Positions 18,380 to 37,786 are shown, counted from the stretch's first letter. The stretch is DNA of 64,000 nt from an uncultured Thermoleophilia bacterium (GCA_963808735.1 CAWEHE010000011.1:105607-169606); one strand, 5' to 3'. Program-made: numbers and translations. The notes: generated from the sequence alone by a model not told the origin.

Positions 18380-19508
18380 TCAGGCGCCGGCGTCATCGTA
18401 CCGCCGCACGACGTTGTAGAGCGTGTCGCGCTCCACCGGCTCGCGGCCGGCGGCGCGGATGACGCGCACGAGCTCGGCCTTGCTGAGCTCCTGGGCCGTA
18501 TCCACGCCGGCCGCGTGACTGATCCTCTCCTCGACCACGGTACCGTCGAGGTCGTTGACGCCGAAAGCCAGTGACACCTGCGCGAGCTTGAGGCCGACGT
18601 TGATCCAGAACGCTTTGACGTGGCGGAAGTTGTCCAGCACCAGGCGGCCGACGGCGAGCATCTTGAGGTCGTCGAAACCGGTGGGCCCGGGCAGCTCACT
18701 GAGTCCGGTGTTGGCCGGCTGGAAGGACAGCGGGATGAAGGCGTTGAAGCCGCCGGTGTCGTCCTGGAGCTCGCGGAGACGGACCATGTGGTCCGCGAGC
18801 TCCTCCGGCGTCTCGACGTGGCCGTAGAGCATGGTCGCGTTGGACTTCATGCCGACCTCGTGCGCCGCGCGATGGACGTCCAGCCACGTCTGGCCGCTGA
18901 TCTTCTGCTCACAGATGAGGTCGCGCACGCGGCCGCTGAAGACCTCGGCGCCGCCTCCCGGCAGCGAGCCGAGCCCGGCGTCCTTGAGCTCCTGCAGCAC
19001 CTCGGTCACGGACTTGCCGCTGATCCTGGCGAAGTGGGAGATCTCGCTGGCGGTGAACGCCTGGATGTGGACGTCCGGGGCCAAGCTCCCGGAGCGCGCG
19101 CATCATCCCCAGGTAGTAGTCGAAGGGCAGGTCGGGATGCTCGCCGCCGACGATGTGGATCTCGCTGATGCCGCCGACGGCGAGCGTCTCGCGAGCCTTG
19201 TCGACCACCTCGTCGACGCTGAGCGTGTAGGCGTCGGCATCACCCTCGTCGTGGCTGAAGGCGCAGAACAGGCAGCGGTTGCGGCAGACGTTGGTGTGGT
19301 TGATGTGCCGGTTGCAGATGAAGTAGACCTCGTCGCCGGCGATGCGCGCACGGGCGAAGTCGGCCATCGCGCCGAGCGCGAGGATGTCGCTGCTGGAGAG
19401 CAGCTCGGTCGCATCGTCGCCGGTCAGACGCTCGGCGGCCTCGACCTTGCGCCAGAGGTGGTCGAGGCCGGAGCGCGCGGCGAGCGCGGAGATCTCACTT
19501 GGGTTCAC
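18380..19508 (-). CDS. mqnE: Aminofutalosine synthase (radical SAM), frameshift near 19085
   Basis: HINHTNVCRNRCLFCAF, EIHIVGG / HIQAFTASEI, SLPGGGAEVF, SNATMLYGHVE, HVKAFW, DLDGTVVEERISHAAG. Confidence 0.9.
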
Positions 19509-20512: not shown

Positions 20513-21285
20513 GCCGGCACCTCACCCACGTGGAGAGCCACGGCACCGAAACCGAGGCGCCGGTAGCGCACGTTCACCAGCCCGGCGCCGGCCATGATGG
20601 CGGCGAGTCCGTCTGCCCGCGGGAAGGCCGCCACCGACGCGGGCAGATAGGCATAGGCCGAGGGGTCGCCGGTGACGACCCGGCCCAGGATCGGCACGAC
20701 GCGGCCGAGCCAGAGGTCGTGGAAGCGCCTGCCCGGCCCGTCCGGCGCCTGGGTCGACTCGAGGCAGACGACGCGGCCGCCGGGGCGCGTGACCCGCGCC
20801 ATCTCGCGGAAGGCGCGGGGCACGTCCGGCACGTTGCGCACCCCCCAGCCGACGGTGACGGCGGCGAACTCGCCGTCGGAGAAGGGCAGCGAAAGCAGGT
20901 CCCCGGCGACGAAGGCGTGCGGTACGGGCAGGCCGCGGCGCTCGCGAGACGCGGCCTTCTCCCGCGCCCTTACGATCATGGCCGGCGTGAAGTCGAGCCC
21001 CGTGACGCGACAGCCCGGGCACGCGTCCACAAGGCCGAAGGTGAGGTCGCCGGTACCGCAGCATGCATCCAGGGCCTGGTCGCCCGGAGCGAGTGCAGCT
21101 TCGCCGGCAGCCATCCTCCTCCAGCGGCCGTCGAGGCCGACGGTCATGATGCGGTTCATGAGGTCGTAGCGCGGCGCGATGCCGCCGAACATGGCCTCGA
21201 TCCGCGAGGGGTCGCGATCGATCGGGAGGTCATCGGACGCGCGCGCGGGCCGGCCGGACGTCGTCAGCGCCGGCCCCCGTCCCAC
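20509..21285 (-). CDS. ubiE: Demethylmenaquinone methyltransferase (UbiE/MenG)
   Basis: MFGGIAPRYDLMNRIM, LDACCGTGD, WGVRNV, RVTRPGG, AYAYLPASV. Exact start uncertain. Confidence 0.92.
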   Translation of the reverse strand: MGRGPALTTSGRPARASDDLPIDRDPSRIEAMFGGIAPRYDLMNRIMTVGLDGRWRRMAAGEAALAPGDQALDACCGTGDLTFGLVDACPGCRVTGLDFTPAMIVRAREKAASRERRGLPVPHAFVAGDLLSLPFSDGEFAAVTVGWGVRNVPDVPRAFREMARVTRPGGRVVCLESTQAPDGPGRRFHDLWLGRVVPILGRVVTGDPSAYAYLPASVAAFPRADGLAAIMAGAGLVNVRYRRLGFGAVALHVGEVPA

Positions 21286-21875
21286 GGCGGGAACAGATCC
21301 TGCTCGAAGCCGAGGGCGCTCATCACCTTGCCGGCGACGTGATCGACGACGTCCTCCAGCGACCGCGGCCGCGAGTAGAAGCCGGGCATCGCCGGCATGA
21401 CGACGGCGCCGGCCTCCGCCAGCTCGAGCAGCCGGCGCAGGTGGATCTGCGTGAGCGGCGTCTCGCGCGGGACCACGACGAGCGGCCGCCGCTCCTTGAG
21501 GGCGACGTCGGCGGCGCGATGCATGAGCGTGCGCGTCGTGCCGAGGGCGATGTGCGCCGCCGTCGACATCGAACAGGGGCAGATGACGACGGCGTCGGGG
21601 GCGCTGCTTCCGCTGGCGGGAAGCGCCCCCAGGTCGTCCGGCAAGAAGACGTCCGCCGTCACGCCGGTCCGCTCGAGGAACGCCGCCGTGACCGCGTCGC
21701 GCCCGGCGGCGTCCAGCTCGAGCTCGTGCTCGAGCACGAGGACGCCGCTCTCGGAGATGCTGAGCTGGAGCGCGCAGCCGGCCGCCGCCAGCGCCTGTAC
21801 CAGCCGCGCGGCGTAGGGCGCGCCGCTCGCGCCGCTGACGCCGACGAAAACGCTCTGTGGTGGTCTACCGGTCAT
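21264..21875 (-). CDS. ubiX: Flavin prenyltransferase
   Basis: VGVSGASGAPY, ASGS, PCSMST, RAADVALKERR, PRETP, MPAMPGFY. Confidence 0.95.
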   Translation of the reverse strand: MTGRPPQSVFVGVSGASGAPYAARLVQALAAAGCALQLSISESGVLVLEHELELDAAGRDAVTAAFLERTGVTADVFLPDDLGALPASGSSAPDAVVICPCSMSTAAHIALGTTRTLMHRAADVALKERRPLVVVPRETPLTQIHLRRLLELAEAGAVVMPAMPGFYSRPRSLEDVVDHVAGKVMSALGFEQDLFPPWDGGRR

Positions 21876-21911: not shown

Positions 21912-23120
21912 CTAGTTGATCGAGCCGGCGTGGCACTGGCCACCGTAGCAGCCATTGGGCCCGGTGCCGCCGTTGCCGTGGCACTTCATGCACACGCTGC
22001 CCTGGTTGTACGTGTAGTTCGGATGATCGCCGATGAAGGCGCTGCTGTGGGGCAGCTCGACGCCGTGGCAACCCACGCAGAAGGAGTTGCTGTGGCACTT
22101 GCTGCACAGGCCGGGCGAGCTCAGGGCCGTGCTCGGGTGCGTGGAGAGCCAGCCGGACGGATGCGGCATCTGCAGGCCGTGGCACTTGATGCAGCTGTCC
22201 TGCCCGTGGCACTTGACGCACTTCTCCCGATTCTTCTGACTCGCCTGGGAGTAAGCGCCGTGGCTCGACAGCCAGCTGCCCGGATGCGGCATCACGAGCC
22301 CGTGGCAGTCGATGCAGAACGTCGGGTCGTCCTTGAGGTGGCAGGAGACGCAGATGCTCTTGCCGCGGTCGACGACGATCGGGCCGTGGCTCTTCATCCA
22401 ACCCTCGGGATGCGGCATGTCGAGCCCGTGATGGCAGTCGGCGCAGATCGTTCCGGTCTTGTGGCATCCCTGACACTGTGACGGGGTCACCTTCCCCGTG
22501 ATCGGGACGTTGATCTCCTCCGGAGGCGCGCCCCCGACGTGGCAGATGTCGCAGTCGTCCGGCAGCCGCTTGCCGTCGTGGCAGCGCGCGCAGATCGGCA
22601 TCTTGTTCTGCGAGACGCGGGCGACCTCGAGCTGCGTTCCGGGGTGGCTGATATTGGCGTGGCAGGCCGTGCACTGATAACCGGCTTCCCGGAGACCCGT
22701 GTGGTTCACGCGGATGTTGTTGTAGACCTGGTCGCGCTCGATCTGGGACTTGGGGTGGCACTGGACGCAGTTGGCGGTGCCCACGGCGGTGGTGATGGGG
22801 CGCTGGTACGTGTCGGACACGTAGAGGATGAGGTTCGTGACGCCCTGGAGGTTCCTGATGAGGTAGTTGAAGACGCCGGGCTTGGTGTGGCACTTCTGGC
22901 AGCCGACGCCGGCGCGATAGTGAGGCGACTGCTTGTACGTTTCCACCTCGGGCTGGATGACGTGGCAGACCTCGCAGGCCGCGATGCTGTTGACTGCCGA
23001 GAAGGCGATGACGGCCGCGACGAAGACGACCCCGAGGGCGGCGAGGACGCCGATCAGCCACGACCTCGGCACCCTGCCCTCGAGGAGCACGCGGCTCTTG
23101 GGGGTCCTGTTTCTGGGCAC
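21912..23120 (-). CDS. NapC/NrfH-like membrane-anchored multihaem cytochrome c (15 CxxCH plus a C-terminal CX4CH)
   Basis: One N-terminal TM, CEVCH...SPH..VGCQKCH core, repeated MPHPxxWxxxH-dihaem units, terminal CYGGQCH. Manual count. Confidence 0.9.
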   Translation of the reverse strand: MPRNRTPKSRVLLEGRVPRSWLIGVLAALGVVFVAAVIAFSAVNSIAACEVCHVIQPEVETYKQSPHYRAGVGCQKCHTKPGVFNYLIRNLQGVTNLILYVSDTYQRPITTAVGTANCVQCHPKSQIERDQVYNNIRVNHTGLREAGYQCTACHANISHPGTQLEVARVSQNKMPICARCHDGKRLPDDCDICHVGGAPPEEINVPITGKVTPSQCQGCHKTGTICADCHHGLDMPHPEGWMKSHGPIVVDRGKSICVSCHLKDDPTFCIDCHGLVMPHPGSWLSSHGAYSQASQKNREKCVKCHGQDSCIKCHGLQMPHPSGWLSTHPSTALSSPGLCSKCHSNSFCVGCHGVELPHSSAFIGDHPNYTYNQGSVCMKCHGNGGTGPNGCYGGQCHAGSIN

Positions 23121-23123
23121 GGT

Positions 23124-24164
23124 CTACTCGCTCCCCGGTACCGGCGTCACCGTGGGCGTCACGCGCGGGGACGGGGTGTAGTCGACACCGTCGAACAGGC
23201 TGTGCGCCCGCGGGTCGCCCGAGGCATGCTGCTCGTGACAGGCCTGGCAGTTGTCCAGCACGTGACAGTTGAAGCACGTCGGAGCGCCGGCGCGAGCCGC
23301 GGCGGCCGGATGGCTGGAGACGAAGTCCTCCGGATGTGGCATGGGCACCTGGTGACAGGTCTTGCAGTACTCCTTGACGTTGTGGCACTGGGCGCACGTT
23401 TGCCGCCCCTTGGCCTCGGCGGACTTGCCGTGCGCGTAGAGCCACGCGTCGGGGTGCGGCATGAGGATATCGCTGTGGCACTTGCTGCAGGCGTCCTTCT
23501 CGACGTGGCAGGCGCTGCAGGTGGAGAGCACGCCGACGGCGCCGTGCCGCGTGCTCCAGTCCGACTCCTGGTGCGAGGAGGGGACGGCCCCGTAGCCGCG
23601 CTTGACGTGGCACAGGTCGCAGCGCGACGTGGCCACCGTCCCGTCGGGGGCGCGATACTCGTTGTTGTGGCAGATGAGGCACTGCTCCATGACCGGATAC
23701 GTGCGCGATCCCGGGGGAATGGCGAGTCCGTGCGCGGTGGTGGAGTGGCAGCGCTGACAGAGGAAGCCCGCCTCGATGAGGTGCTGGTGGTCCACGCGGA
23801 TCCCGTTCCTGGTGACGGGCTTGAAGAGCGTGTCGTTGGTGTGGCAGCGCCGGCACGACTGGTTGAGCACATAGCCGAGGATGGGCTTTTCGTAGTCGCC
23901 CGTGATCTGCGCGATCGGCTGCTGCAGGGCTTCGAGCTTGGAGGTGAGGAAGAAGAACGGTCCCGGTTTGGTGTGGCACTGCTCGCAGTTCACGCCGTCA
24001 TGGGCCGACAGCCTCCACTCGTCGACATAGGGGACGTGGCTCTTGCAGGCCGCGCAGAAACGCGGCGAGGACGTCGCGGCGAGAGCGACCCCGATGAACA
24101 CCACGAGGGCAGTGATCCCGATCGCTGCGACGGTGACGCCGCGAGACGTGAGCCGGAAGTTCAA
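23124..24164 (-). CDS. NapC/NrfH-like multihaem cytochrome c (CxxCK plus 11 CxxCH)
   Basis: N-terminal TM, FCAACKSH...W..SAHDGVNCEQCH, followed by dihaem repeats. Confidence 0.9.
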   Translation of the reverse strand: MNFRLTSRGVTVAAIGITALVVFIGVALAATSSPRFCAACKSHVPYVDEWRLSAHDGVNCEQCHTKPGPFFFLTSKLEALQQPIAQITGDYEKPILGYVLNQSCRRCHTNDTLFKPVTRNGIRVDHQHLIEAGFLCQRCHSTTAHGLAIPPGSRTYPVMEQCLICHNNEYRAPDGTVATSRCDLCHVKRGYGAVPSSHQESDWSTRHGAVGVLSTCSACHVEKDACSKCHSDILMPHPDAWLYAHGKSAEAKGRQTCAQCHNVKEYCKTCHQVPMPHPEDFVSSHPAAAARAGAPTCFNCHVLDNCQACHEQHASGDPRAHSLFDGVDYTPSPRVTPTVTPVPGSE

Positions 24165-24173
24165 CGGCAGGTC

Positions 24174-25112
24174 TCAGTTGACGGCGCTGGGCCGCGTGTT
24201 GTGGACGGCCCTGCGGTGACACAGTGTGCACTGATAGCCGTCGTCGTGCCGAAGGGCCACGCTATGACACTGCGTGCACGCCGACTTGCCGGGCGTGCCC
24301 TGGGCGCCGTGGAACTTGCGGGTGTGGCAAGTTCGGCAGTTCCTGACCCTCTTGCTGACCGCGCTGGCGTGCAGCTTCTGCGAGTGGCACGACCCGCACA
24401 CACGTTTCTTGCTGATGGACTTCGCATGCTGCGCCGCCGTCGCCGGCCCGCTGCCCGTGCCCTTGTGGCAGGTCGCGCACTTGCTTTGCGCGACCGCCCT
24501 GCCGGCGTGCCTCTTGGCGTGGCAGGCGCGACAGTTCTTGAAGCCCGGGCTGGTCGCCGTGTAGAGGTGGAACGCCTCGGCGGTCGTGTGGCACTTGGTG
24601 CACTGGACCTTGTTGGCGTGCTGCTGGTAGCCGGAGTGGCACGCCGCGCAGTCGTTGAATCCGGTCGCCTGCCCGCTGTGATGCGGGCTCGACCCGGGAT
24701 CGAAGATGCTGACGCTGGTCGCGTGACAGGCGGTGCAGGCGGAGCTCGAGCCCAGGTGCGGGTTGGCGCCGTGGGTGCTCGGGATCGTGTACGCCTTCTG
24801 GGCAGCGTTCCAGAGGTGGCACTCCTGGCTGCAGGCCGTACCGGGCGTGGAGAGGGTCGACGTGTCCTGGCCGGGGTAATGACAGGTCCAGCAGGTGTCG
24901 TCCGGGTAGCTCACAAACCCCGGGTGGCACGACGTGCACGTCGCATCGGTCGGCTTGCCGTTGTCGTGACAGACACAGCCGGTCGCGCCGTCGTGCTGCC
25001 ACTGATCGAAGGCGCCGGCAGGCGAGGCTGCGAGCGCGAGAGCCAGCACGCTGGCTGCGAGCAGCGTCACAGCCATCGCCGCGACCGTCGCCCAACGACC
25101 CTTTCCGCTCAC
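24174..25112 (-). CDS. Secreted haem-dense multihaem cytochrome c (11 CxxCH plus CxCH and CX3CH)
   Basis: Signal peptide ending PAGA, no TM anchor seen. Start GTG 25112 after AAGGGAG. Confidence 0.85.
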   Translation of the reverse strand: MSGKGRWATVAAMAVTLLAASVLALALAASPAGAFDQWQHDGATGCVCHDNGKPTDATCTSCHPGFVSYPDDTCWTCHYPGQDTSTLSTPGTACSQECHLWNAAQKAYTIPSTHGANPHLGSSSACTACHATSVSIFDPGSSPHHSGQATGFNDCAACHSGYQQHANKVQCTKCHTTAEAFHLYTATSPGFKNCRACHAKRHAGRAVAQSKCATCHKGTGSGPATAAQHAKSISKKRVCGSCHSQKLHASAVSKRVRNCRTCHTRKFHGAQGTPGKSACTQCHSVALRHDDGYQCTLCHRRAVHNTRPSAVN

Positions 25113-25246
25113 GCTGACTCCCTTCCCCAGTCCGGGCGCCGCGCTCCACAGCTCGGCCGCCGGGCACACTCCCCCACGAGGCTATCGCCGTCTTGCCGGC
25201 GAGCCCCCTCGTCGCGACCTACCGCGACGAGCCCCACACGCATTCG

Positions 25247-25277
25247 AGTCTACCAGTGATTGTGAAGCGGTTCACCC
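25247..25277 (-). promoter_or_regulatory. Rex operator overlapping an internal promoter
   Basis: TTGTGAA-GCGG-TTCACCC (25260-25277) versus consensus TTGTGAA-N4-TTCACAA. Extended -10 TGGTAGACT at 25255-25247; rex is in the same cluster. Confidence 0.75.
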
Positions 25278-26201
25278 TCAAAAAGAGCTGAGCCAGTAGT
25301 AGGTGACCCAGACGACGAAGAGGGTGAAGACCGCCCACAAGAACAGCGCCGCGCCGGTGATGATCCACCACAGCACGTTCTCGAACTTCATGCGCCTCGG
25401 GCTCAGCGGCGCGATGAGCACCTCGTCCAGCGTGCCCTCCCGCACGCGACGCTCATACTCGAGCGGCCGCTCGTGGGCGTACTCCTCGAGCGGCAGGCCG
25501 CCGTTGTACATCGCCTTGTCCATCGGGAACGCCTCCGGCCGCAGGTGGGCGTGGAAGAAGTGCCAGAACACGACGACGAAGCCCATCGCCAGGAGAGCCC
25601 CGCCCGAGTGGTTGACGAGGGCGAAGTTGATCACGATGCCGGGCAGGTACCGCGCCGCGACCTCCGGGTACCAGAGGATGGCCCCGGTGACGCACATGAT
25701 GGTGACGCCGGCGGACGCCGCCCAGAACTCGCCCTTCTCGTAGTAGGCGTAGCGGTCGAGTTCCAGCCTCGGGCGAGGAGTCGCACCCACGAACCAGCCC
25801 ACCATGGCCTTCAGGTCCCGGTAGTCCTGCCGGTTGGGGACCATGGTGCCGGGGCCCCAGAAACGTCCCTTGGACCTGATGAGGATGACGCCGAAGTAGC
25901 CCAGCATGCAGATGACGCACGTGACCATGATCATCGCCGCGAAGCGGTGGATCATGCCGGCGTTCTGCACGCCGCCGATGATGCCCATCCACCGCTGCGC
26001 CCACGCCTGGTCGCTGTACTTCAGAGGCATGCCCGTCAGCACCAGGATGGAGAAGCTGATCATGATGAAGAAGTGCACCCAGCGCTGAAAACCCGTGAAG
26101 CGGCGGAAGTGGGTGCGCGCCCCGACCGCGGCCGGGGTCGCTCTCGCCGCCGGCTCCTGGACCACGGCTTCGTTGCGGATACCGCTGTCGGCGCTAGCCA
26201 C
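25278..26201 (-). CDS. Dihaem cytochrome b membrane subunit (FdnI/CbcL b-domain-like)
   Basis: RRFTGFQRWVH...LVLTGMPLKY...IHRFAA...RYAYYEKGEFWA...HFFHAHLRPEAFPMD, about 5 TM. Confidence 0.9.
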   Translation of the reverse strand: MASADSGIRNEAVVQEPAARATPAAVGARTHFRRFTGFQRWVHFFIMISFSILVLTGMPLKYSDQAWAQRWMGIIGGVQNAGMIHRFAAMIMVTCVICMLGYFGVILIRSKGRFWGPGTMVPNRQDYRDLKAMVGWFVGATPRPRLELDRYAYYEKGEFWAASAGVTIMCVTGAILWYPEVAARYLPGIVINFALVNHSGGALLAMGFVVVFWHFFHAHLRPEAFPMDKAMYNGGLPLEEYAHERPLEYERRVREGTLDEVLIAPLSPRRMKFENVLWWIITGAALFLWAVFTLFVVWVTYYWLSSF

Positions 26202-27057
26202 GGTGGTACATTCCCTCCCTCAGGCCTCTGTAGAAGTACATGAAGCAGTGCAGCCCTCCAAGTGTGAAGAGCACGCCGATGAGGACGGCGTGGTTCATCT
26301 CCATCAGCCACACCCACAGCGATGAGTGGGGCGTGCTGCGGTCGACGTGCACGAGGAAGCTGGCGAACCTGGAGTTCGCGTTCTCGTGGCACTTGCCGCA
26401 GGTCGCCACGACGTTCTGCGAGGACACCATGCTGTGGGGGTCCGACTTCGGCAGGATCTCGTGCGAGCCGTGACAGTCGGTACACACCGCACGCGAGAGG
26501 TTGCCCATGCGCACGGACTTGCCGTGATACGTGTCCAGGTAGGTCTCCGACTTCTCGCCGTGGCAGCGTCCGCACACCTCGGGGATCGTCTCTCTGAACT
26601 CGGCCGACTTGGGGTCCACGATGCCGTGTGAGCCGTGGCAGTCGCCGCAGGCGGGCGCCTCCTCGGAACCTTCGTTCATCACGAGATTGCCGTGGAAGGA
26701 CTTGTCGTACATCTGGAACTCACTGGCGTGGCAGTCGCTGCAGGCGGTGAGCTTGGCCTGCTTGTACCACCCCTGGGTCTCCTCCGGCGTGTGCTCGCGC
26801 GGCTGGAACCCCGCGTGGCAGGCGGTGCAGTCCAGCCGGGAATGCATCGAGGAGTGCCAGGCGTCCTCGGAGACGGTCAGGCTCTTCTCGACGCCGTTGA
26901 CGTTCACGGTGCCGAGGCCCGGCTTGGCGTGACACTCGAGACACTGGTCGCTGGCGCCGCTGGGAATGGTGAACGTGACCGCGCCCGCCGGCGCCGCGGC
27001 GGCGGCCAGCAGGCAGGCCGCGCCAAGAACGACGAGGATGGCGCGACGGAGACTCAC
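26194..27057 (-). CDS. Heptahaem cytochrome c with a C-terminal TM (CbcL c-domain-like)
   Basis: Signal peptide, 7 CxxCH, TCGKCHENAN, C-terminal TM containing His. Confidence 0.9.
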   Translation of the reverse strand: MSLRRAILVVLGAACLLAAAAAPAGAVTFTIPSGASDQCLECHAKPGLGTVNVNGVEKSLTVSEDAWHSSMHSRLDCTACHAGFQPREHTPEETQGWYKQAKLTACSDCHASEFQMYDKSFHGNLVMNEGSEEAPACGDCHGSHGIVDPKSAEFRETIPEVCGRCHGEKSETYLDTYHGKSVRMGNLSRAVCTDCHGSHEILPKSDPHSMVSSQNVVATCGKCHENANSRFASFLVHVDRSTPHSSLWVWLMEMNHAVLIGVLFTLGGLHCFMYFYRGLREGMYHRG

Positions 27058-28016
27058 TGGGTGGTCACTCCCTCAGCGCGGTGGCACTCCACGCACATCT
27101 GCTCCGGGTGACACACGAGGCACGACCGGTCGCCCTTGGCCGCCACCGGCGCGTGCGACGTCGCCCAGTCGGCGGGGTGATCGACCGTGTGACACTGGTT
27201 GCAGAGCTGTTCCTCCGTGTGGCAGCCCAGACACCGCGTGCGGTCCTTCTTGGCCTGCTGGCCGTGCGCGTAGGGCCAGTTCCCCGAGTAGTGACCGGGC
27301 GTCGGCTTCTCGTGACAGCCGTCGCAGAACTGCTCCTTGTTGTGGTGACAGCGGACGCAGTCCTGCTCGTTGGCCAGTGCCAGCTTGCCGTGCTCCTGGA
27401 GGAAGTCCGTCGGGTGGGATGTGCCTCCCTCGGGCGGCGTGTAGTGACAGAAGTCGCAGCCGGCGGGGTCGCTGGTCTGCTCGTGACACATGGTGCAGGG
27501 AGCCATGCTGACCGCGCTGCTCTGCCCGGGAGCCGCGTGCGCCGTGTGGTCATGGCAGTCGATGCACTCGAGGTTGTTCTGGTTGATGTGCTTGGCGTGG
27601 GGCATACGGATCTTGCCCGGGATGCCCATGAGACCCTTGAGCGGATGACACTCGATGCAGTTCGCGGTGGCCGGAGGTGCTTGCCGGTCCTTCGGGGGGT
27701 GCATGTTGAGGTATTCCAGCCAGATGTTCCGCGCCTCCTTGGTGCGCCACCTGAGCGAGGCCATCACGCCCGGCGGAACGTGGCACTCGGCGCAGGGGAC
27801 CGAGGAGTGAGCGCTGCGCTGCCAGCTGCGGTACGCCTGCTTCATGGAGTGGCAGCTGCCGCAGTACGACGAAGACGAGGTGGCCACGACGGGCACGAGC
27901 AGGCCGATGACGATCACGCAGGCGACCGCCACCAGCGCGATGATCGCGAACCAGCGGGAGCGGCGTCGCGGCTCCCCGTCTACCTGCTGTGGCTCCTGGA
28001 CGTCGCCGTCACTCAC
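27054..28016 (-). CDS. NapC/NrfH-like dodecahaem cytochrome c
   Basis: TM anchor, YCGSCHSMK (CxxCHxM), SAHSSVPCAECH; 12 CxxCH. Start GTG 28016 after AGGGGG. Confidence 0.9.
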   Translation of the reverse strand: MSDGDVQEPQQVDGEPRRRSRWFAIIALVAVACVIVIGLLVPVVATSSSSYCGSCHSMKQAYRSWQRSAHSSVPCAECHVPPGVMASLRWRTKEARNIWLEYLNMHPPKDRQAPPATANCIECHPLKGLMGIPGKIRMPHAKHINQNNLECIDCHDHTAHAAPGQSSAVSMAPCTMCHEQTSDPAGCDFCHYTPPEGGTSHPTDFLQEHGKLALANEQDCVRCHHNKEQFCDGCHEKPTPGHYSGNWPYAHGQQAKKDRTRCLGCHTEEQLCNQCHTVDHPADWATSHAPVAAKGDRSCLVCHPEQMCVECHRAEGVTTQ

Positions 28017-28101
28017 CTGTGCGTCCCCCTGGGAGTGCGTGATGGTGGCCGGTGCGTCCACGAGATTGCGAGAGCGGATGCCGGACGCTTCGGCGGCGGT
28101 C

Positions 28102-28110
28102 ATTGTACCA
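28102..28110 (-). promoter_or_regulatory. Extended -10 promoter element for cytochrome module 2
   Basis: TGGTACAAT on the minus strand; an identical element precedes module 1. Confidence 0.55.
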
Positions 28111-28148
28111 CACGGGGTATACGAGAGAGGCCGGTAGCGGCACTCGAT

Positions 28149-29018
28149 TCATGTCCACAATGTCGCCGCGATCACGACCGCGCCATACAGGAGACCCACG
28201 GCTCCGTTGACCGTCATGAAGCTCATGCCCACCCGGTCCAGGCCCCGCCTCGCAATGTCCACGTGAGGCCACGCCAGGAGAGCCGTCACGGCTGCCAGCC
28301 CAACCCAGTAGATGAGCCCGAGGTCGGACACGACCCCCACCGCGATGAGCAGTGCGACGGCCGCGACGTGCGAGACCTCGGCGACGATCAAGGCGCCGCG
28401 AACGCCGACTGCCACGGGCACCGAATGCAGCCCGTTTCGCCGGTCGAAGTCGAGGTCGAAGATGGCGTAGATGACGTCGAAGCCGCCGACCCACAGCCCC
28501 ACGGCGAAGAACAGCAGCCACGGCACCGTACCGAGGCGGCCGCTCACCGCCAGCCAGGCGGCCGCCGGAGCAAGCCCCAGCGTGAGTCCCAGGGCGTAGT
28601 GGCAGAACCAGGTGAAACGCTTCGTGTACGGATACAGCACGAAGGCCGCAAGGGGGATCGGCCAGAGATACCGGCACGGCTCGGAGAGCTGGAACGCCGA
28701 CAGCACCAGCAGACTCACCGACACGAGCGTGAAGAGCCAGACCTCACGCCGCCCGAGGCGACCGGCCGGCAGCTCGCGCGCGGCGGTGCGCGGGTTGCGC
28801 GCATCCACTTCCGCGTCGATCAGCCGGTTGAGAGCCATGGCCGCGCTGCGAGCCCCGACCATGGCGAGCGTGATCCACAGAAGCTGTGACCACGTGGGCG
28901 CGCCGCCGGCCGCCAGGAACGCGCCCGCGTAGGCGAACGGCAGAGCGTAGACGCTGTGCTCGACCTTGACGAGCCTGGCGAAGAGTGCGGCTTTGGAGCC
29001 GGAGACGCTCCCGGGCAC
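28149..29018 (-). CDS. ubiA: UbiA-family prenyltransferase (MqnP-type)
   Basis: VKVEHSVYALPFAY, MVGARSAAMALNRLIDAEVDARNPRTAARELP, YPYTKRFT, GFDVIYA. Confidence 0.93.
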   Translation of the reverse strand: MPGSVSGSKAALFARLVKVEHSVYALPFAYAGAFLAAGGAPTWSQLLWITLAMVGARSAAMALNRLIDAEVDARNPRTAARELPAGRLGRREVWLFTLVSVSLLVLSAFQLSEPCRYLWPIPLAAFVLYPYTKRFTWFCHYALGLTLGLAPAAAWLAVSGRLGTVPWLLFFAVGLWVGGFDVIYAIFDLDFDRRNGLHSVPVAVGVRGALIVAEVSHVAAVALLIAVGVVSDLGLIYWVGLAAVTALLAWPHVDIARRGLDRVGMSFMTVNGAVGLLYGAVVIAATLWT

Positions 29019-29034
29019 GCCCGCTGGATCCCGG

Positions 29035-29785
29035 TCAGCCTGCGTCGGCGGTGGAAGAGCTGCCCTTGTCGCCGGGGGCCGTCGGCCGGCCCGCGGCGGG
29101 CTTCTCGTCTGCGGGCTTGGCCGCCTCTGGCTTGGCGACCTCGGACCTGGACGACTCGGGCTTGGCCGCGGCGGGCTTCTCCGCTTCTGGCTTGGCCGCC
29201 TCGGGCTTGGCCGCCTCGGGCTTGGCCGCCTCCGGCTTGGCCGCTTCTGACTTGGCCGCCTCGGACTTGGCCGCTTCTGACTTGGCCGCCTCCGGCCTGG
29301 GCGACTTCTGGCTTGGCAGCTTCCGGCTTGGCCTCGGACTTGACCGCTTCAGCCTTGGCCGCCTCAGCCGAGACTGCCGCCGCCGGCTTCGCGGCCTCGG
29401 GCTCGGTCGCCGGCTCGTCGGCAACCGGGCCGTCCTCCGCCGGGACTGCCCCCGGCCCGCCCTCCGCCGGCCCGTCCTCCTGGTCGCCGCCCTCCCGCTC
29501 GTCCGCCTCGTCGCCGGGCTCCGGGGCCGGAGGACGGTGCGCGAACTTCTCCAGCAGGTAGCTCAGGATCGCGACGATGGCCGCGATCAGGCCGATCACG
29601 AACAACACCGAGTAGACGATGAGGCTGGCCGGCGACGTGATGCCCAGGAACGCGCTGGTCGACCACGCGACGGCGGCGATCCCCCAGTTGATCAGCGACA
29701 GTCTCAGGAGGAAGCGGCGTGCGCGCTTGTCACGCTCGCTGGCCTCCTGGTGCGCTTGTCTCGATCCGAGTGGGGCAGTCATCAC
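29035..29785 (-). CDS. Two-TM membrane protein with a long acidic, EAAK(P/S)-repeat tail, frameshift near 29300
   Basis: N-terminal part of track ORF 28820..29785 joined to the C-terminal part of ORF 29035..29424. Confidence 0.7.
29113..29400 (-). repeat. Imperfect 15-nt tandem repeat encoding EAAK[P/S]
   Basis: Plus strand shows repeated (g/a)cttggccgc(c/t)tc units, about 15 degenerate copies. Confidence 0.85.
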
Positions 29786-31567
29786 TCAGTCCAGTACCGA
29801 CCAGATGATGAACGCCGTCATGAGCAGCGCCGAGAACCCCATCACCGCGGTGATGATCCACCAGATGCTGTCGGCGAACATCGTCTTCCACGTGACGGTC
29901 CTCTCCACGAGGACCTCGTCGAGTGTACCCTCCCGCACGCGGCGGGCGTACTCGAGCGGCCGCTCTTCGCGGTAGTGCCCGACGGGCAGCGTGCCGGTGA
30001 AGATGACCTTGTCGATGGGGAACGACTCCGGGCGCAAATGGGCGCTGAAGAAGTGCACGAAGATGAAGATGACGCCCATCGCGAGCAGCGCCTCGTTCGA
30101 GTGGATCACGATGGCGATGTTCAGGAAGACGCCCGGCAGGTACTCGGTCGTCTTGAGCGGGAACCACATCATGAAGCCCGTGAGGCCGATGATGACCGTG
30201 CCGATGGCCAGCGAGATGTAATCGAACTTCTCCCAGTAGGTGTAGCGGTCGAACTGCGGCTTCGGCCCCTTGCCGAAGAACCAGGCGAACATGCCGACCA
30301 TGTCCTCCAGGTCCTTCTTGCCGAACATCATGGAGCCGGGGCCGCGCAGGTTCTTGCCGCGGCGGCGAACGACCATGACGATCATGAAGAGCATCTCCGC
30401 GCTCCAATAGACGACGGTCACGATCGCGGCCAGCCGGTGGTAGATGCCCGCCGCCGTGACGCCTCCGAAGAAGTCCATGAACCACTGCGCCCAGGCGGTG
30501 TCCTTGTACTTGAGCGGCATGCCGGTGAACACGAGCACGGTGAAGCTGACGATGACGAGAAAGTGCATCCAGCGGTGGAAGAGATTGAAGCGCCGGTACT
30601 CGACGCGCTTGTCACCCCGGCGGTCCCGCCCGGGGTGGTGGCTGCGCGAGTACAGCCCTTCCTTGGCGCCGCGATAGATGTACAGGCTCGTGTGCACCGC
30701 GGCGAAGGTGAATACCACGGCGATGAGCATGACGTAGGCCATCCAGAAGAACCAGACCAGCCACGACGAGCGCGGGTCCTGAGGATTGACGTGCACGTCG
30801 AAGTCGGCGAAGTTCGCGTTGGCCCCCGGGTGGCAGCGGGCGCACGTCTCGACGATGTTGGCGTCGGAGACTGAGCTCTCCGGGTCCGAGGCGGGCAGGA
30901 TGCGGTGACCCCCGTGACAATCGGTGCACACGGCGGCGTTCTCGTCGCCGAGCAGGTAGGCCTTACCGTGGTAGCTGTCGAGGAAGGTGTCCTCCTTGCC
31001 GCCGTGGCAGCGCGTGCACATCGCCATCTGGGTGGCGCGGAACTCCGGGGTGCCCGGGGAGAGGATGTTGTGCGCCTCGTGGCAGTCGGCGCAGAGCGGC
31101 GCCTTGTCGCGATCATCAGTGAACGACAGGGCCCCGTGGAATGAGCCCTGGTACATGCGGGCTTCCTCGCCGTGGCAGTCGCCGCAGGCGGTGAACTTGG
31201 CCGTCCTCAGCCAGTCCTGGGTGACGCTCTCCGGGTGCGTGCCGGCGTTGAAGCCGATATGGCAGCTGATGCAGGCCAGCTTGCCGTGGCGGGAGGCGCC
31301 CTGATGCGCCCGGTCGACGTAGAGGCTCCTCTTCTGGCCGTTCACGTCGATGTACGCCGGCACCTGCTCGCCGTCGACGGTGATCGTGCCGTCGACCGGC
31401 TTCTGCCCGTGGCATTCGAAGCAGGCGTCGTTCTGGTTGGCGCTGAGCGCTTCGCCGCCGGATCCCGTCGGACTCGCCGCCACGGCGACGCCGGACAGCA
31501 GAGCGACGCTTCCGATGACGGCGACGCACGTGAGCGCCAAGGCCAGGCCGGCGCGGCGGAAGGTCAC
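29786..31567 (-). CDS. CbcL-like cytochrome c/b fusion (7 CxxCH plus dihaem b membrane domain)
   Basis: Signal peptide, 7 CxxCH, then RRFNLFHRWMH, TGMPLKY, FDRYTYWEKFDY, HSNEALLA, HFFSAHLRPESFP. GTG start overlaps the upstream stop. Confidence 0.92.
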   Translation of the reverse strand: MTFRRAGLALALTCVAVIGSVALLSGVAVAASPTGSGGEALSANQNDACFECHGQKPVDGTITVDGEQVPAYIDVNGQKRSLYVDRAHQGASRHGKLACISCHIGFNAGTHPESVTQDWLRTAKFTACGDCHGEEARMYQGSFHGALSFTDDRDKAPLCADCHEAHNILSPGTPEFRATQMAMCTRCHGGKEDTFLDSYHGKAYLLGDENAAVCTDCHGGHRILPASDPESSVSDANIVETCARCHPGANANFADFDVHVNPQDPRSSWLVWFFWMAYVMLIAVVFTFAAVHTSLYIYRGAKEGLYSRSHHPGRDRRGDKRVEYRRFNLFHRWMHFLVIVSFTVLVFTGMPLKYKDTAWAQWFMDFFGGVTAAGIYHRLAAIVTVVYWSAEMLFMIVMVVRRRGKNLRGPGSMMFGKKDLEDMVGMFAWFFGKGPKPQFDRYTYWEKFDYISLAIGTVIIGLTGFMMWFPLKTTEYLPGVFLNIAIVIHSNEALLAMGVIFIFVHFFSAHLRPESFPIDKVIFTGTLPVGHYREERPLEYARRVREGTLDEVLVERTVTWKTMFADSIWWIITAVMGFSALLMTAFIIWSVLD

Positions 31568-32508
31568 GGCGTCACTCCGTTCTGCTCGTGGCACGCGTCG
31601 CACATCCCCTGTGGATGGCACACCAGACAGGCGCTCGGGCCCTTCTTGGCGATGGTCCCGTGGTAGTCCTGCCAGCCGGAGGGGTGGCTCACGGCGTGAC
31701 ACTGATCGCAGTAGGCCTGGTCGTGGCAGGCCTCACAGTTCGCGGGATCGTCCTTGGCGTCGGCGCCGTGCATGTAGCGCCACCTGCCGGAGTAGTGCGA
31801 TGCGGGCGGGAGCTCGTGGCACTTGTCGCAGAACTCCTGCTTGTCGTGGTGGCAGCGCAGGCAGTTCGCCTCGTTCACGAGCGCCTTCTGGCCGTGATCC
31901 TTCATGAAGTCCGGTGCGTGCTCGCTGGCCGGCGGGGCCGCGTGGCAGAAACTGCAGTCGTCCGGCGCGCCCTGCTCGTTGTGACACATGGTGCAGGTGA
32001 CCATGCGCACACCTTGTTGCTGGCCCGGCCGCTTGTGCGAGACGGTGTTGTGACAGTCGGTGCACAGCAGGCCGCGCATCTCGAGGTGCTGCTCGTGGTT
32101 CATGCGCACGCCGTCGGTCTCGCTGGGGATCTCGGTCACCGGGTGGCAGGTGAGGCAGTTGGCGTTGGCGGGAAGGTGCTCCCGGCCACTTGAGCTCGGC
32201 ATGCCCAGGTAGTCGGCCCACACGTTCTTGGCCTCGCGCAGGCGCCAACGGGACGCCGCCGCGACGCCGGGCGGGATGTGACATTCGGTGCACGTGACGT
32301 AGCTGTGGGAGGAGTCGGCGTGCGTCGCTGCGGCCGGCTTCATCGCCTTGCAGGACGTGCAGTACGACTCGGAGTCCATGGCGGCGACGGGCAGCACGAG
32401 GATGGCCACGAAGATGAATGCGATGGAGATGGCGACGACCCAGGCGAACCACGTCGTGCGGTACCAGACGCGCGGCGCGGGCCGATGGCGATGGTTTCTC
32501 TCAGCCAA
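31564..32508 (-). CDS. NapC/NrfH-like dodecahaem cytochrome c (CxxCK plus 11 CxxCH)
   Basis: TM anchor, YCTSCKAMK, SSHSYVTCTECH; co-linear paralogue of 27054-28016. Confidence 0.9.
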   Translation of the reverse strand: MAERNHRHRPAPRVWYRTTWFAWVVAISIAFIFVAILVLPVAAMDSESYCTSCKAMKPAAATHADSSHSYVTCTECHIPPGVAAASRWRLREAKNVWADYLGMPSSSGREHLPANANCLTCHPVTEIPSETDGVRMNHEQHLEMRGLLCTDCHNTVSHKRPGQQQGVRMVTCTMCHNEQGAPDDCSFCHAAPPASEHAPDFMKDHGQKALVNEANCLRCHHDKQEFCDKCHELPPASHYSGRWRYMHGADAKDDPANCEACHDQAYCDQCHAVSHPSGWQDYHGTIAKKGPSACLVCHPQGMCDACHEQNGVTP

Positions 32509-32652: not shown

Positions 32653-34089
32653 TCAGGCGAACGGCAGGCCGAACTCCGCCCAGCGCTCGTTGACACGGCG
32701 GACGACGGCCGGGTCCATGGCGAGCTCCTCCGGCCACTCGCGCTGGTGCCCCTCGTCGGGCCACGACTTGGTGGCGTCGATGCCCATCTTGGCGCCGTAG
32801 CGCGCCGTCGGGCTCGAGTGGTCGAGCACGTCGAGGGGGCCGCGCGAGATGACGCAGTCCCGCTCCGGGTCGACGTTGTTGAACACGCGCCACGTGACCT
32901 CGCTGTAGTCGTGCACGTCGACGTGCTCGTCGACCACGACGACGAACTTGGTGAACATCATCTGGCCCATGCCCCACACCGCGCTCATGATCTTGCGCGC
33001 GTGGCCGGGGTACTCCTTGCGGATGCTGATGATGGCGCAGTCGTGGAAGACGCCCTCGATGGGCAGGTCCATGTCGACGATCTCGGGCTGCACGAGCTGC
33101 AGCAGCGGCAGGAAGAGGCGCTCGGTGGCCTTGCCGAGGTAGGCGTCCTCCATCGGCGGCTTGCCGACGATGGTCGCCGGGTAGATGGGGTCGCGGCGGT
33201 GACTCATGGCGGTGAGGTGGAACACCGGGTACTGGTCGGCGAGCGAGTAGTAGCCGGTGTGGTCGCCGAACGGCCCCTCGAGCCGCGTCTCGCCCTTCTC
33301 GACGTAGCCCTCGAGGACGATCTCGGCGTCGGCCGGCACGGAGAGGTCGACGGTGGCGCACTGCGCCATCTCCACCGGCTCGCCGCGGAGGAAGCCGGCG
33401 AACATGAACTCGCTGATGCCCGGCGGGAGCGGAGCCGTGGCGGCATACGTGACCGCCGGGTCGGTGCCCAGGGCGACCGCGACCTCCATGCGGTCGCCGG
33501 CTTCGCGGAAGTTGGCGGCGCCGTCGTGGTGGATGTGGATGTGCATGCCGGTGGTCTGGCCGTCGAAGACCTGGAGCCGGTACATGCCGGCGTTCTGGCG
33601 GCCCTGCTGGTCTTTGGTCACGACGATCGGCAGCGTGATGAAGGGGCCGCCGTCGCCGGGCCACGTGGTGAGCACCGGCAGGCGCGCGAGGTCCGGCGGG
33701 TCGACGACGACCTCGCGGAAGGCGGCCTTCTTGCCGTATTTGGGGCCGTAGGAGGCGAGCTCCTTGAGCTGGCCGAGCGCCTTGACCTTGCCGACGAGGC
33801 CACTCGGCACCTGCAGTTCCAGCAGCCCGCCGATGCGCCTGGCGATGTCGTCGAGCGGCGCGCCCAGGGCCAGCTCGAGACGGCGGTACGAGCCGAGCTG
33901 GTTCATGAGGACCGGCACGGCGGGCTGGCCTGCCGGTCGCCTCGGCTGCTCGAACAGCACGGCCGGACCGTGCGCCTTGCTGGCGCGGTCGGCGATCTCC
34001 GCCATCTCGAGATAGGGGTCGACCTCGGGGCGCACGCGGGCCAGCTCGCCCTCGCGTTCCAGCAGACTGATGAAGGCACGCAGGTCCAC
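32653..34089 (-). CDS. ubiD: Menaquinone-biosynthesis UbiD-family decarboxylase
   Basis: DLRAFISLLEREGEL, WPGDGGPFITLP, NAGMYRLQ, EGPFGDHTGYY, GKPPMED, KMGIDAT. Confidence 0.95.
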   Translation of the reverse strand: MDLRAFISLLEREGELARVRPEVDPYLEMAEIADRASKAHGPAVLFEQPRRPAGQPAVPVLMNQLGSYRRLELALGAPLDDIARRIGGLLELQVPSGLVGKVKALGQLKELASYGPKYGKKAAFREVVVDPPDLARLPVLTTWPGDGGPFITLPIVVTKDQQGRQNAGMYRLQVFDGQTTGMHIHIHHDGAANFREAGDRMEVAVALGTDPAVTYAATAPLPPGISEFMFAGFLRGEPVEMAQCATVDLSVPADAEIVLEGYVEKGETRLEGPFGDHTGYYSLADQYPVFHLTAMSHRRDPIYPATIVGKPPMEDAYLGKATERLFLPLLQLVQPEIVDMDLPIEGVFHDCAIISIRKEYPGHARKIMSAVWGMGQMMFTKFVVVVDEHVDVHDYSEVTWRVFNNVDPERDCVISRGPLDVLDHSSPTARYGAKMGIDATKSWPDEGHQREWPEELAMDPAVVRRVNERWAEFGLPFA

Positions 34090-34091
34090 GG

Positions 34092-34676
34092 TCACCTCCC
34101 GGCGACGGCTTCGAGCTCGCGCAGCAGCGGAGCGGGATCGGGCAGATCGAGGCGGGTCGCGGCGCGCGCGACGGCGGCCGGCACGTCCGCTGGAGGAGAC
34201 GCATGGAAGCCGGCGTCGACCTCGTCGAAGAGCGCGCCCACTGCCTCCGACGCCGCGCCGGCGTGCTGGGCGGCGATGCCGGCCACGGCGTAGGCCCAGA
34301 GCGCATCGTCGTCGGCGAACGCAGCGCCGGCGCTGCGCAGGTACGAGCACGCCGCCATGAGACGGGCGAGCAGGCCGACGGCGTCGGCGTCCCCGCGCGT
34401 GGCGATGCCGCGCAGGCCGCGCGCGTAGTAGCAGTCCCCGGCCAGCAGCCGGGTCTCCAGATCGTCCGCCGCGAGCGCCAGGGCGCGGCTCTCGCGGTAG
34501 TGCAGCAGGTAGCCCTCGTAGATCAGCTCGATGTCGGTCGCGAACCCGTCGTCGGCGTCGGCATCGAGCGCTGCGTACAACGCTCCCCAGCGCGGAGCGG
34601 GAGCGGCGGCCGGCGCCGGGCCGAAGGCCTCCCCGGCCGCCGCCAGCGCCGCGGCCAAGCCGGCGGCGAGGTCCAC
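34092..34676 (-). CDS. Hypothetical protein, possibly a prenyl-synthase small subunit (HepS-like)
   Basis: Coupled between rex and ubiD; ELIYEGYLLHY...LLAGDCYYARGL resembles isoprenoid-synthase helices but lacks DDxxD. Confidence 0.6.
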   Translation of the reverse strand: MDLAAGLAAALAAAGEAFGPAPAAAPAPRWGALYAALDADADDGFATDIELIYEGYLLHYRESRALALAADDLETRLLAGDCYYARGLRGIATRGDADAVGLLARLMAACSYLRSAGAAFADDDALWAYAVAGIAAQHAGAASEAVGALFDEVDAGFHASPPADVPAAVARAATRLDLPDPAPLLRELEAVAGR

Positions 34677-34678
34677 GG

Positions 34679-35329
34679 TCAGGCCTGTTCCCGGTCGAGG
34701 TAGAAGGACAGCGACATCAGCTCGCTGGAGAGGTCGACCTGGCGCACCAGCATGCCCTCGGGGGCGTGCACCTTGATGGGCGCGAAGTTGAGAACGGCCC
34801 TGACGCCGGCCGCACCGAGCCGCTGGACCGTGCTCTCGGCCTCGGCGGCCGGCACGGTGACCATGGCGATGTCGACCCTCTCCTTGCGGCAGAACTCGTC
34901 CAGCTCGTGCACGCCGCGCACGCGGCTTTCCTCGCTCGAGCCGTAGCGGGCGCCGACGACCGTCGCCGAGCTGTCGAACATGCCGACGAGGCGGAAGCCC
35001 TGCTCGCCGAAGCCGCGGTAGCGAGCCAGCGCCGTGCCGAGCAGACCGGCTCCCACGATGACCACGTTCCAGGTGTGATCCAGCCCAAGGCAGCGCGTGA
35101 TCTCGTCGACGAGGACGGGCACCTCGTAGCCCACCCCGCGGGTGCCGAACTCCCCGAAGTAGGAGAAGTCCTTGCGGATCTGCGCCGCGTTCAGGTCGAT
35201 CATCTCGGCGAGGTCCTTGGACGAGACCCTGTCGACTCCCCGGGCGCGCAGCTCGCGCAGCTTGCGCAAGTACAGCGAGAGGCGCGGCACGGTGACGCTG
35301 GGGACCTTCTTCCTGTCGAAGTCGCGCAT
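34679..35329 (-). CDS. rex: Redox-sensing transcriptional repressor Rex
   Basis: RLSLYLR, VSSKDLA, QIRKDFSYFGEFGTRGVGYEV, IVGAGLLG, LNFAP. Confidence 0.95.
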   Translation of the reverse strand: MRDFDRKKVPSVTVPRLSLYLRKLRELRARGVDRVSSKDLAEMIDLNAAQIRKDFSYFGEFGTRGVGYEVPVLVDEITRCLGLDHTWNVVIVGAGLLGTALARYRGFGEQGFRLVGMFDSSATVVGARYGSSEESRVRGVHELDEFCRKERVDIAMVTVPAAEAESTVQRLGAAGVRAVLNFAPIKVHAPEGMLVRQVDLSSELMSLSFYLDREQA

Positions 35330-35331
35330 CT

Positions 35332-36624: not shown

Positions 36625-36803
36625 CCGGGTCCTCCCTGCGAGTGAGAATGCCTGTGCAGGCTGTGGACTATACTACGCGCCGCCGCGCGGCATGTGCGTC
36701 GGTACACAACCTACCCGCCATTCGCGAAGGCGCATCCCCACAGGAAGAAGCGGACGGCCGCCGAACGGCTGAGCAAGCAGCCACCCGGCCCGAGGAGCGC
36801 GCC

Positions 36804-37244
36804 ATGCCAGTGACCATCCGCCACGCCTGCCCCGGTGACGAACCGGCCATCGTGCGCCTCGTCCGCGAGATGGCCGAGGGCGAGGGAGACGTCTCGGCGA
36901 CCGACGAGCACTACGTCCGGCACTTCCTCGCCTCGCCGGTCAGCGGCGCGCTCCTCGCCGAGGACGGCGCGGACGCCGTCGGCCTGCTCAGCTACGCCAT
37001 CGTGCCGGGGCTGTTCCACACCGCGGACTCCGGGCTCATCGAGCTGCTGGTCGTGACCAGCGCCCGAAGGAGCGAAGGGATCGGGCGCCGTCTCGTCGAG
37101 ACGGCGCTGCGCGTCTTTCGCGAAGCCGGCTGCGCCGAGGCTTCGGTGAGCACCGGCGCCGACAACCAGGCGGCGCAGAAGGCCTACTGCGACGCCGGCC
37201 TCACGGAGGCGTCGGTCCTGCTCGAGACGCACTTCGAGGCGTGA
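36804..37244 (+). CDS. GNAT acetyltransferase
   Basis: LVVTSARRSEGIGRRL, NQAAQKAY. Confidence 0.8.
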   Translation: MPVTIRHACPGDEPAIVRLVREMAEGEGDVSATDEHYVRHFLASPVSGALLAEDGADAVGLLSYAIVPGLFHTADSGLIELLVVTSARRSEGIGRRLVETALRVFREAGCAEASVSTGADNQAAQKAYCDAGLTEASVLLETHFEA

Positions 37245-37251
37245 CCCGCTG

Positions 37252-37779: not shown

Positions 37780-37786
37780 ACGCCGA

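Follow-up and report, generated by a model that had tools for sequence, protein, structure and literature searches.

The DNA analysed here, a window of 64,000 nucleotides from an uncultured Thermoleophilia bacterium (GCA_963808735.1 CAWEHE010000011.1:105607-169606), encodes four paralogous multi-haem cytochromes of the NapC/NrfH type, referred to as AK314, AH349, BK346 and BH402, and in two of them (AK314 and BK346) the first haem motif after the membrane anchor reads CxxCK. Haem 1 of NrfH-type proteins is the site of menaquinol oxidation, and its iron ligand sets potential and spin state. Based on the comparative evidence obtained in this study, the four proteins are understood as NrfH-type menaquinol dehydrogenases with a recurrent lysine variant of haem 1, the ligand of which would differ by lineage, and we give this reading as a whole somewhat better than even chances. 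Within a known family of respiratory enzymes, the CxxCK NrfH-like cytochromes appear to be a variant not described before: in the full-text literature searched, outside which subscription journals largely lie, we found no description of CxxCK in a protein of the NapC/NirT/NrfH type, and the passages on CXXCK that were checked concern NrfA or CcmF paralogues.

All four proteins pass the NapC/NirT model PF03264 with 40.9-61.3 bits against a gathering score of 24.1, which bears out a preliminary description of this DNA that had named four NapC/NrfH-like paralogues. A hydrophobic stretch precedes the first haem motif in each, and AlphaFold2 (AF2) predicts an N-terminal helix at residues 19-45 of AK314 and 7-30 of BK346. 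The N-terminal module comprises four CXXCH motifs in AH349 and BH402, and one CXXCK followed by three CXXCH in AK314 and BK346. With the NrfH equivalog model TIGR03153, three of the proteins reach about 40-53 bits (40.1-52.9), far from the cut-off of 134.2, and BK346 gives no match; AH349 and AK314 are 46% identical to each other. The first motifs as originally described (CGSCHSM in AH349, CTSCKAM in AK314, CAACKSH in BK346, CEVCHVI in BH402) were all recovered at their positions on the minus strand. The NrfH-type CXXCHXM, with Met two positions beyond the motif His (+2), is thus confined to AH349; AK314 has CXXCKXM, BK346 CXXCKXH and BH402 CXXCHXI. Outside the window, the genome holds a fifth NapC/NrfH-like paralogue, a 351-residue frame with nine CxxCH by regular expression (L011:7942-8994; contig C10:223941-224993, plus strand), whose first site, CGTDCHEM, combines CX3CH spacing with Met at +2 and is another non-standard haem-1 motif.

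The lysines are genuine. Lys54 of AK314 is encoded by AAG at 32347-32349 (local codons TGC AAG GCG ATG) and Lys41 of BK346 by AAG at 24042-24044 (TGC AAG AGC CAC), and AAG differs from the His codons (CAC/CAT) at two positions. Their explanation as sequencing or assembly artefacts is refuted, given the two substitutions required at each site, the occurrence of the motif in hundreds of independently assembled homologues, and the absence of any Lys-codon variant among the differences listed for DNA contigs of other runs that cover the region. The earlier judgement that the two AAG codons make a sequencing error unlikely is reinforced by the retention of Lys in the homologues.

Both CxxCK sites align with haem 1 of NrfH. 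When the proteins were compared with PDB sequences by phmmer, Desulfovibrio vulgaris NrfH (2j7a_C) was the top match for AK314 (residues 30-160, E value 1.6e-13) and for BK346 (E value 0.004), and CTSCK-A-M of the former as well as CAACK-S-H of the latter stand residue for residue opposite C43-T-S-C46-H47-I-M49. The AF2 model of AK314 (mean predicted local distance difference test, pLDDT, 59.7; reliable in the N-terminal third only) likewise has NrfH 2j7a_C as its best Foldseek match (E value 5.8e-4, template modelling score 0.55 on the target); that of BK346, with a mean pLDDT of 43.8, was rejected as a search query. Passages in PMC8840924 and 10.1101/2023.05.03.539133 describe haem 1 of NrfH as the menaquinol-interacting, five-coordinate haem; its ligand is the Met of CXXCHXM and not the motif His, an Asp lies on the distal side, and the conserved Lys82/83 is close by. 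The Met as proximal ligand of NrfH haem 1, from which the preliminary description had argued, agrees with what is stated there (PMC8840924).

The lysine motif is rare among the family members inspected and conserved where it occurs. The genome's 12 frames with at least three CxxCH, eight of them in the window, contain 118 CxxC[H/K] motifs; only two of these are CxxCK, each the first motif of an NrfH-like protein, which together with the conservation of the Lys argues against chance. In a search of a 5.8-billion-protein collection, CxxCK came first in 65 of 80 AK314 homologues (KxM 40, KxT 22, KxP 3), the other 15 being seven fragments that miss the N-terminus and eight relatives at ≤31% identity; for BK346 it came first in 114 of the best 120 of 196 homologues (KxH 108, KxM 6), the remainder being two full-length proteins with CxxCHNM and four that are incomplete at the N-terminus. 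The Lys and both Cys are invariant in sequences down to 45% identity. The alignment of homologues proposed earlier as a check therefore returns CxxCK, and not CxxCH, at these sites. A census of the family in a 1.84-billion-protein library gave 12,019 matches; among the best 150 representatives inspected, CxxCK was first in four, all from the AK314 and BK346 groups, and HxM was the commonest state of the first motif (64 of the 124 with an N-terminal helix).

The gene neighbourhood is conserved along with the motif. A scan of loci with one genome per species yielded 51, of which 50 belong to metagenome-assembled genomes of Thermoleophilia, Actinomycetota or Actinomycetes (one short contig among them is labelled Acidobacteriota) and one is a distant deltaproteobacterial match. 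Their recurrent order is UbiD, A-type cytochrome, c/b, MqnP, (AH349, c, b), c331, BK, BH402, UbiX and UbiE. BK346 orthologues (BK) have CxxCK in 46 of 49 cases (KxH 44, KxM 2), with HxM in two and an incomplete sequence in one; 34 A-type proteins show CxxCK; and BH402 orthologues are HxI/V/L in 45 of 46 (HxI 36, HxV 8, HxL 1, HxG 1). A few loci show odd first motifs, which are due to frames broken by frameshifts. Within the genus the cytochrome cluster is variably present, a BK orthologue being found in 12 of 18 drawn genomes.

Lysine has entered the family more than once. In a maximum-likelihood analysis of 93 rows (quick search, Shimodaira-Hasegawa-like approximate likelihood ratio support), the tree resolves three starred clades, namely clade A with AK314 and AH349, the BH402 group, and clade B with BK346. 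In clade A, the K-type sequences form a clade (95*) beside the HxM group of AH349; in clade B, one HxM sequence branches at the base and a second falls among KxM sequences. At least four K/H changes are needed on this tree, and a single K clade is rejected by the approximately unbiased (AU) test (log-likelihood difference 357, p 2.4e-5). The search with AH349 added K variants outside the 93-row tree (P0364, P0371, P0373, P0375 and P0378) which lie within the AH349 orthogroup, being 58-69% identical to AH349 versus 44-49% to AK314. Since HxM is the commonest state in the family and K/H changes are repeated, the ancestral haem-1 motif was likely an NrfH-like CxxCHxM in which Lys replaced His several times.

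What the lysine does is best approached through the residue at +2, which was counted for clade A in 100 full-length rows with twelve motifs, drawn from the database and the loci, related to each other and possibly duplicated. Every H-type row has Met at +2 (14/14; the H-type matches with twelve motifs in the AH349 search concur, 23/23), and the 86 K-type rows have Met in 48, Thr in 35 and Pro in 3. The Met is thus indispensable together with the motif His, as expected if Met is the ligand, and dispensable together with Lys, which is most simply read as a take-over of ligation by Lys; from this comparison, Lys has probably done so in the AK314 clade. Clade B is different in that +2 of the K-type sequences is always His or Met (114/114 in the database, 46/46 in the loci), hence ligand-capable throughout, and the residue there may remain the iron ligand. 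The preliminary description had left Lys and the +2 residue as alternative ligands in both proteins; that pair of options is compatible with the comparative data, which favour Lys in clade A (+2 Met, Thr or Pro) and leave either candidate in place in clade B (His or Met). The motif position itself is only ever His or Lys in the sequences seen, suggestive of a role that requires a basic nitrogen donor even off the iron, and haem positioning during attachment could be one such role. NapC and CymA ligate via the motif His, and BH402, with its aliphatic +2 residue, should do so as well.

Two rival assignments of the ligand need to be weighed against this lineage-specific one. According to the first, Lys is never an iron ligand: the +2 residue ligates in both proteins (Met in AK314, His in BK346), and the motif merely needs a basic nitrogen donor, either for the Ccm system to attach the haem or to handle protons or charge at the quinol site, the KxT and KxP proteins obtaining their ligand from elsewhere or having none. 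AK314 and BK346 do keep Met or His at +2, as does the whole of clade B in the counts given above, His and Lys interchange repeatedly while Met stays, and NrfH sets the precedent of a motif His off the iron in the passages of PMC8840924. Thr or Pro at +2 in 38 of 86 K-type rows of clade A, as opposed to Met in every H-type row, is hard to explain on these terms, and no other clade-specific ligand candidate was found near the site, so that we regard this first rival as unlikely. The positions of clade A that discriminate K-type from H-type sequences are only 127/128, 145, 156, 181, 284 and 293 (AK314 numbering), and none of them coincides with the residues aligned to NrfH Lys82 or Asp89. Opposite Lys82 stands Arg in clade A and the invariant Lys76 in clade B; Asp89 is aligned with the nearly invariant Asn95 in clade A and is unmatched in clade B. 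Position 128 is Pro in 85 of 86 K-type rows and Met in 12 of 14 H-type rows (AH349, window about 27650-27700, minus strand), which could be a second difference in haem ligands between the paralogues.

The second rival assigns Lys as proximal ligand in AK314 and BK346 alike, giving a five-coordinate, high-spin quinol-site haem as in NrfA, with the +2 His of BK346 in another role such as proton acceptor. It draws on the invariance or near-invariance of the Lys in clades A and B, and on the Lys-ligated CxxCK being known chemistry of NrfA (passages in PMC12285233 and PMC8840924). It leaves the strict His/Met at +2 of clade B unexplained, and it sits poorly with the two CxxCHNM members of that clade, one of them nested among K-type sequences. 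We consider it distinctly improbable.

The mechanistic scenario we favour, with the ligand differing by lineage, can be put together as follows. Each of the four single-helix cytochromes, with 12 or 15 haem motifs, would contain an N-terminal four-haem menaquinol dehydrogenase module of the NrfH/NapC type, and would be co-transcribed with CbcL-like c and b partners from within a futalosine menaquinone operon. Electrons would pass from menaquinol at the outer face of the membrane into the c-haem chains. CxxCK arose several times, likely from a CxxCHxM ancestor with Met at +2 as iron ligand; because the ancestral motif His would already have been off the iron, its exchange for Lys was possible. 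In the AK314 lineage, Lys would then have become the proximal ligand, as the Met at +2 became dispensable. In the BK346 lineage, the +2 residue (His, sometimes Met) would probably still be the ligand, and Lys would keep the other role of the motif position, for instance positioning the haem while it is attached, or dealing with charge or protons at the quinol site. The four quinol haems would accordingly offer four proximal environments: Met, Lys (or Met), +2 His (or Lys), and motif His.

Several points weigh against this scenario and are gathered here. AK314 and BK346 themselves retain a ligand-capable +2 residue (Met and His), which would allow NrfH-like +2 ligation in both. The AF2 models are weak (mean pLDDT 59.7 and 43.8) and free of haem; the K group of the AU test, albeit defined by the trait, was chosen with the tree already known; and database rows and locus rows overlap and are related, so that their counts do not represent independent events. 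Homology, the match to NrfH haem 1, conservation, recurrence and the relaxed +2 position are demonstrated by the data, and from there we infer haem at CxxCK, the identity of its ligand and the direction of electron flow. A further point concerns maturation, given that CXXCK is stated to need NrfEFG in E. coli and NrfI in Wolinella (passages in PMC12285233). The genome has a cytochrome c biogenesis cluster on another contig (L010:6688-10832 and L063; contig C22) with CcmE, one CcmF, CcmA, a probable CcmB, CcmC and a HemX-like protein, followed by hemA, hemC and hemD; CcmF, CcmC and the HemX-like protein are its three PF01578 matches. Within the 90%-complete assembly no CcmH was found, and tblastn revealed neither a second copy of CcmF or NrfE type nor a dedicated CXXCK lyase (NrfEFG/NrfI). 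CcmE is of the Cys type, CPSKY replacing the His motif, and such a CcmE without CcmH presumably corresponds to the variant form of System I in archaea and Desulfovibrio. Of the 12 same-genus genomes with a BK orthologue, 10 have CcmF, and no intact second CcmF is present among them, multiple matches being adjacent fragments. Four of the 18 genomes, smaller ones of 2.1-2.5 Mb of which three are 93-100% complete, contain neither the BK orthologue nor CcmF, a pattern suggestive of the entire capacity for c-type cytochromes having been lost or gained.

These findings could be taken to mean that CxxCK is haem-free, the proteins having 11 haems and quinol being handled by the cytochrome b partners or other subunits. 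The single CcmF, the failure to find NrfEFG-like genes and CcmH in the assembly, and the dedicated lyase reported for E. coli and Wolinella (PMC12285233) would fit, as would the FdnI-like b partners adjoining two of the four NrfH-like genes. Yet both Cys and the Lys are invariant down to 45% identity after a change that evolved more than once, BK346 has no adjacent cytochrome b, and in the NrfH fold haem 1 serves as the entry haem. Moreover, Shewanella is reported, in passages of PMC12285233, to lack NrfEFG and seems to mature CXXCK via CcmF and CcmI, a precedent by which the missing lyase weakens the case for haem attachment here without excluding it. We therefore hold a haem-free site to be very improbable and retain the haem-bearing, NrfH-type interpretation.

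A bolder joint reading would treat the Lys-ligated quinol-site haem as the mark of a new class of quinol:cytochrome c oxidoreductase. It would combine a ligand hand-over repeated in Thermoleophilia (Met-ligated CxxCHxM giving rise to CxxCKxM and this in turn to Lys-ligated CxxCKx[T/P]), maturation by a single CcmF in a CcmH-less System I with Cys-type CcmE and no dedicated CXXCK lyase, and paralogues coded by their ligand, with Met, Lys, +2 His and motif His sites serving different potential windows or directions; this set would be the counterpart, in an actinobacterium of Gram-positive type, to ImcH, CbcL and CbcBA of Geobacter. We put this reading forward tentatively, as a possibility on the doubtful side.

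Regarding function, the gene context is informative. No NrfA, nitrate reductase or trimethylamine N-oxide reductase partner is found among the window genes; the only PF02335 (NrfA) match of the genome is partial (26.5 bits, in a 765-residue frame on another contig), and AK314 and BK346 do not match PF02335, so that there is no cytochrome c552 fold around their CXXCK. The partners encoded nearby are multi-haem c proteins and FdnI-like b cytochromes. From this setting, menaquinol oxidation that feeds an extracytoplasmic electron chain is the most likely role, and by analogy to ImcH, CbcL and CbcBA, the paralogues may be tuned to different potentials or directions, as also surmised earlier.

The open reading frame map shows a contiguous row of minus-strand genes over the studied region (Table 1), in the transcription order UbiD, AK314, c/b fusion, small membrane protein, MqnP, AH349, c287, b307, c331, BK346, BH402 and UbiX; beyond UbiX follow, by Pfam and NCBIfam, a MenG/UbiE methyltransferase, polyprenyl synthase, MqnE, MqnA and MqnC. 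Start/stop overlaps of the form GTGA join AK314 to the c/b fusion (probable GTG start 31567) and AH349 to c287. The c/b fusion, a frame of 638 residues, matches PF09699/PF14522 and PF01292, the latter at 30.5 bits versus a cut-off of 30.1; in the split pair c287 and b307, the b part stays below the Pfam and NCBIfam cut-offs.

Table 1. Genes of the cytochrome cluster and at its two ends, in order of transcription (window coordinates)
Gene product	Position	Strand	Evidence or remark
UbiD-family menaquinone-biosynthesis decarboxylase (SCO4490 type), upstream end of cluster	32653..34350	-	TIGR03701, 607 bits
AK314, NrfH-like membrane-anchored cytochrome, 11 CxxCH + 1 CxxCK, first motif CTSCKAM	31564..32508	-	PF03264
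CbcL-like fusion, periplasmic 7-CxxCH cytochrome c domain + FdnI/HydC-type cytochrome b domain	29786..31567	-	PF09699, PF01292, TIGR01583
Small protein, two hydrophobic segments, low-complexity Ala/Glu/Lys/Pro tail	28820..29785	-	3' end uncertain (frame overlaps MqnP)
MqnP/UbiA-type menaquinone prenyltransferase	28149..29018	-	Pfam + NCBIfam
AH349, NrfH-like cytochrome, 12 CxxCH, first motif CGSCHSM (NrfH-type CxxCHxM)	27054..28103 (start 28103 or 28016)	-	PF03264
c287, cytochrome c, 7 CxxCH, C-terminal hydrophobic segment	26194..27057	-	GTG start overlaps AH349 stop
b307, FdnI-like membrane cytochrome b	25278..26201	-	PF01292 24.3 bits + TIGR01583 E 6.5e-13, both below cut-off
c331, secreted cytochrome c, 11 CxxCH	24174..25169	-	Adjoins BK346 in 48/51 related loci
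BK346, NrfH-like cytochrome, 11 CxxCH + 1 CxxCK, first motif CAACKSH	23124..24164	-	PF03264
BH402, NrfH-like cytochrome, 15 CxxCH, first motif CEVCHVI (canonical His, aliphatic +2)	21912..23120	-	PF03264
UbiX flavin prenyltransferase, downstream end of cytochrome insert	21264..21875	-	Pfam + NCBIfam

A number of further observations concern the surroundings. The small protein at 28820-29785 matches neither Pfam nor NCBIfam, and its N-terminal ~90 residues find counterparts in open reading frames of 39 of the 51 related loci. MqnE (aminofutalosine synthase; 18383-19508, minus strand) is split into two overlapping frames, 18909-19508 and 18380-19084, and represents either an assembly frameshift or a broken gene. 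Directly upstream of the operon, at 34679-40174 (minus strand), are the genes for the redox-sensing repressor Rex, hemL, AhbD (the radical-SAM haem b synthase of the sirohaem route) and hemB; as they abut the operon, the quinone, haem and cytochrome genes form one block beside a redox regulator. Elsewhere in the window, an 861-residue frame (52930-55512, minus strand) has, in the second half, a domain of the dihaem cytochrome c peroxidase/MauG type (PF03150), and an 863-residue single frame (45663-48251, plus strand) joins the phosphotransferase system domains EIIA-Man, HPr and Enzyme I. The assembly amounts to 3.24 Mb in 35 contigs at 90% completeness. Runs labelled as freshwater sediment and wetland contain DNA contigs almost identical to the window, and the best-matching run may be the source sample. 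In one RNA-library run (X20), contigs resemble parts of the cluster at 90-95%; they derive from relatives, and carry-over of DNA is possible, hence they are no proof of transcription of the cluster.

Our study has importance in pointing to a variation at the very haem that oxidizes quinol. Ligation by Lys, if true, would extend the kinds of proximal ligation in the family from three (Met, His and, as predicted for ImcH, His/Gln) to four, and a haem-bearing CxxCK here would be a rare case outside the nitrite-reductase superfamily, suited to test the rule that CXXCK requires a dedicated haem lyase. For spectroscopy and electrochemistry, nature already supplies a series of variants in H-x-M, K-x-M, K-x-T and K-x-H. 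Lastly, the cluster suggests how abundant uncultured actinobacteria of soil, sediment and wetland couple the menaquinone pool to extracytoplasmic electron transfer.

The relationship to known systems is one of partial likeness in each case. With NrfH of D. vulgaris (2J7A/2VR0), the window cytochromes share the single N-terminal helix and a four-haem module of the same fold, as well as Met at +2 of the haem-1 motif in AH349 and AK314; unlike NrfH, which has four haem motifs, they have 12 or 15, replace His47 by Lys in AK314 and BK346, come without an NrfA partner and score below the NrfH equivalog cut-off. ImcH and CymA, likened here by description only, are multi-haem quinol oxidases of the NapC/NirT type that also feed extracytoplasmic chains and not one dedicated enzyme, and their haem 1 is likewise unusual in its ligation, His/Gln being predicted for ImcH in the passages of 10.1101/2023.05.03.539133; they differ in haem numbers and helix counts, and all their haem motifs are described as CXXCH. 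CbcL of G. sulfurreducens, a c domain fused to a membrane dihaem b domain according to passages in PMC9129911, resembles in domain layout the gene at 29786-31567, which fuses a multi-haem c part to a membrane domain of dihaem-b type; CbcL has nine c-haem motifs compared to seven here, where the partner is NrfH-like. The active-site haem of NrfA, finally, shares the CXXCK motif and possibly the same Lys-iron bond, yet it belongs to another family and another position in the fold, and the lysine motif described here is placed at a membrane quinol site and not in a catalytic pocket.

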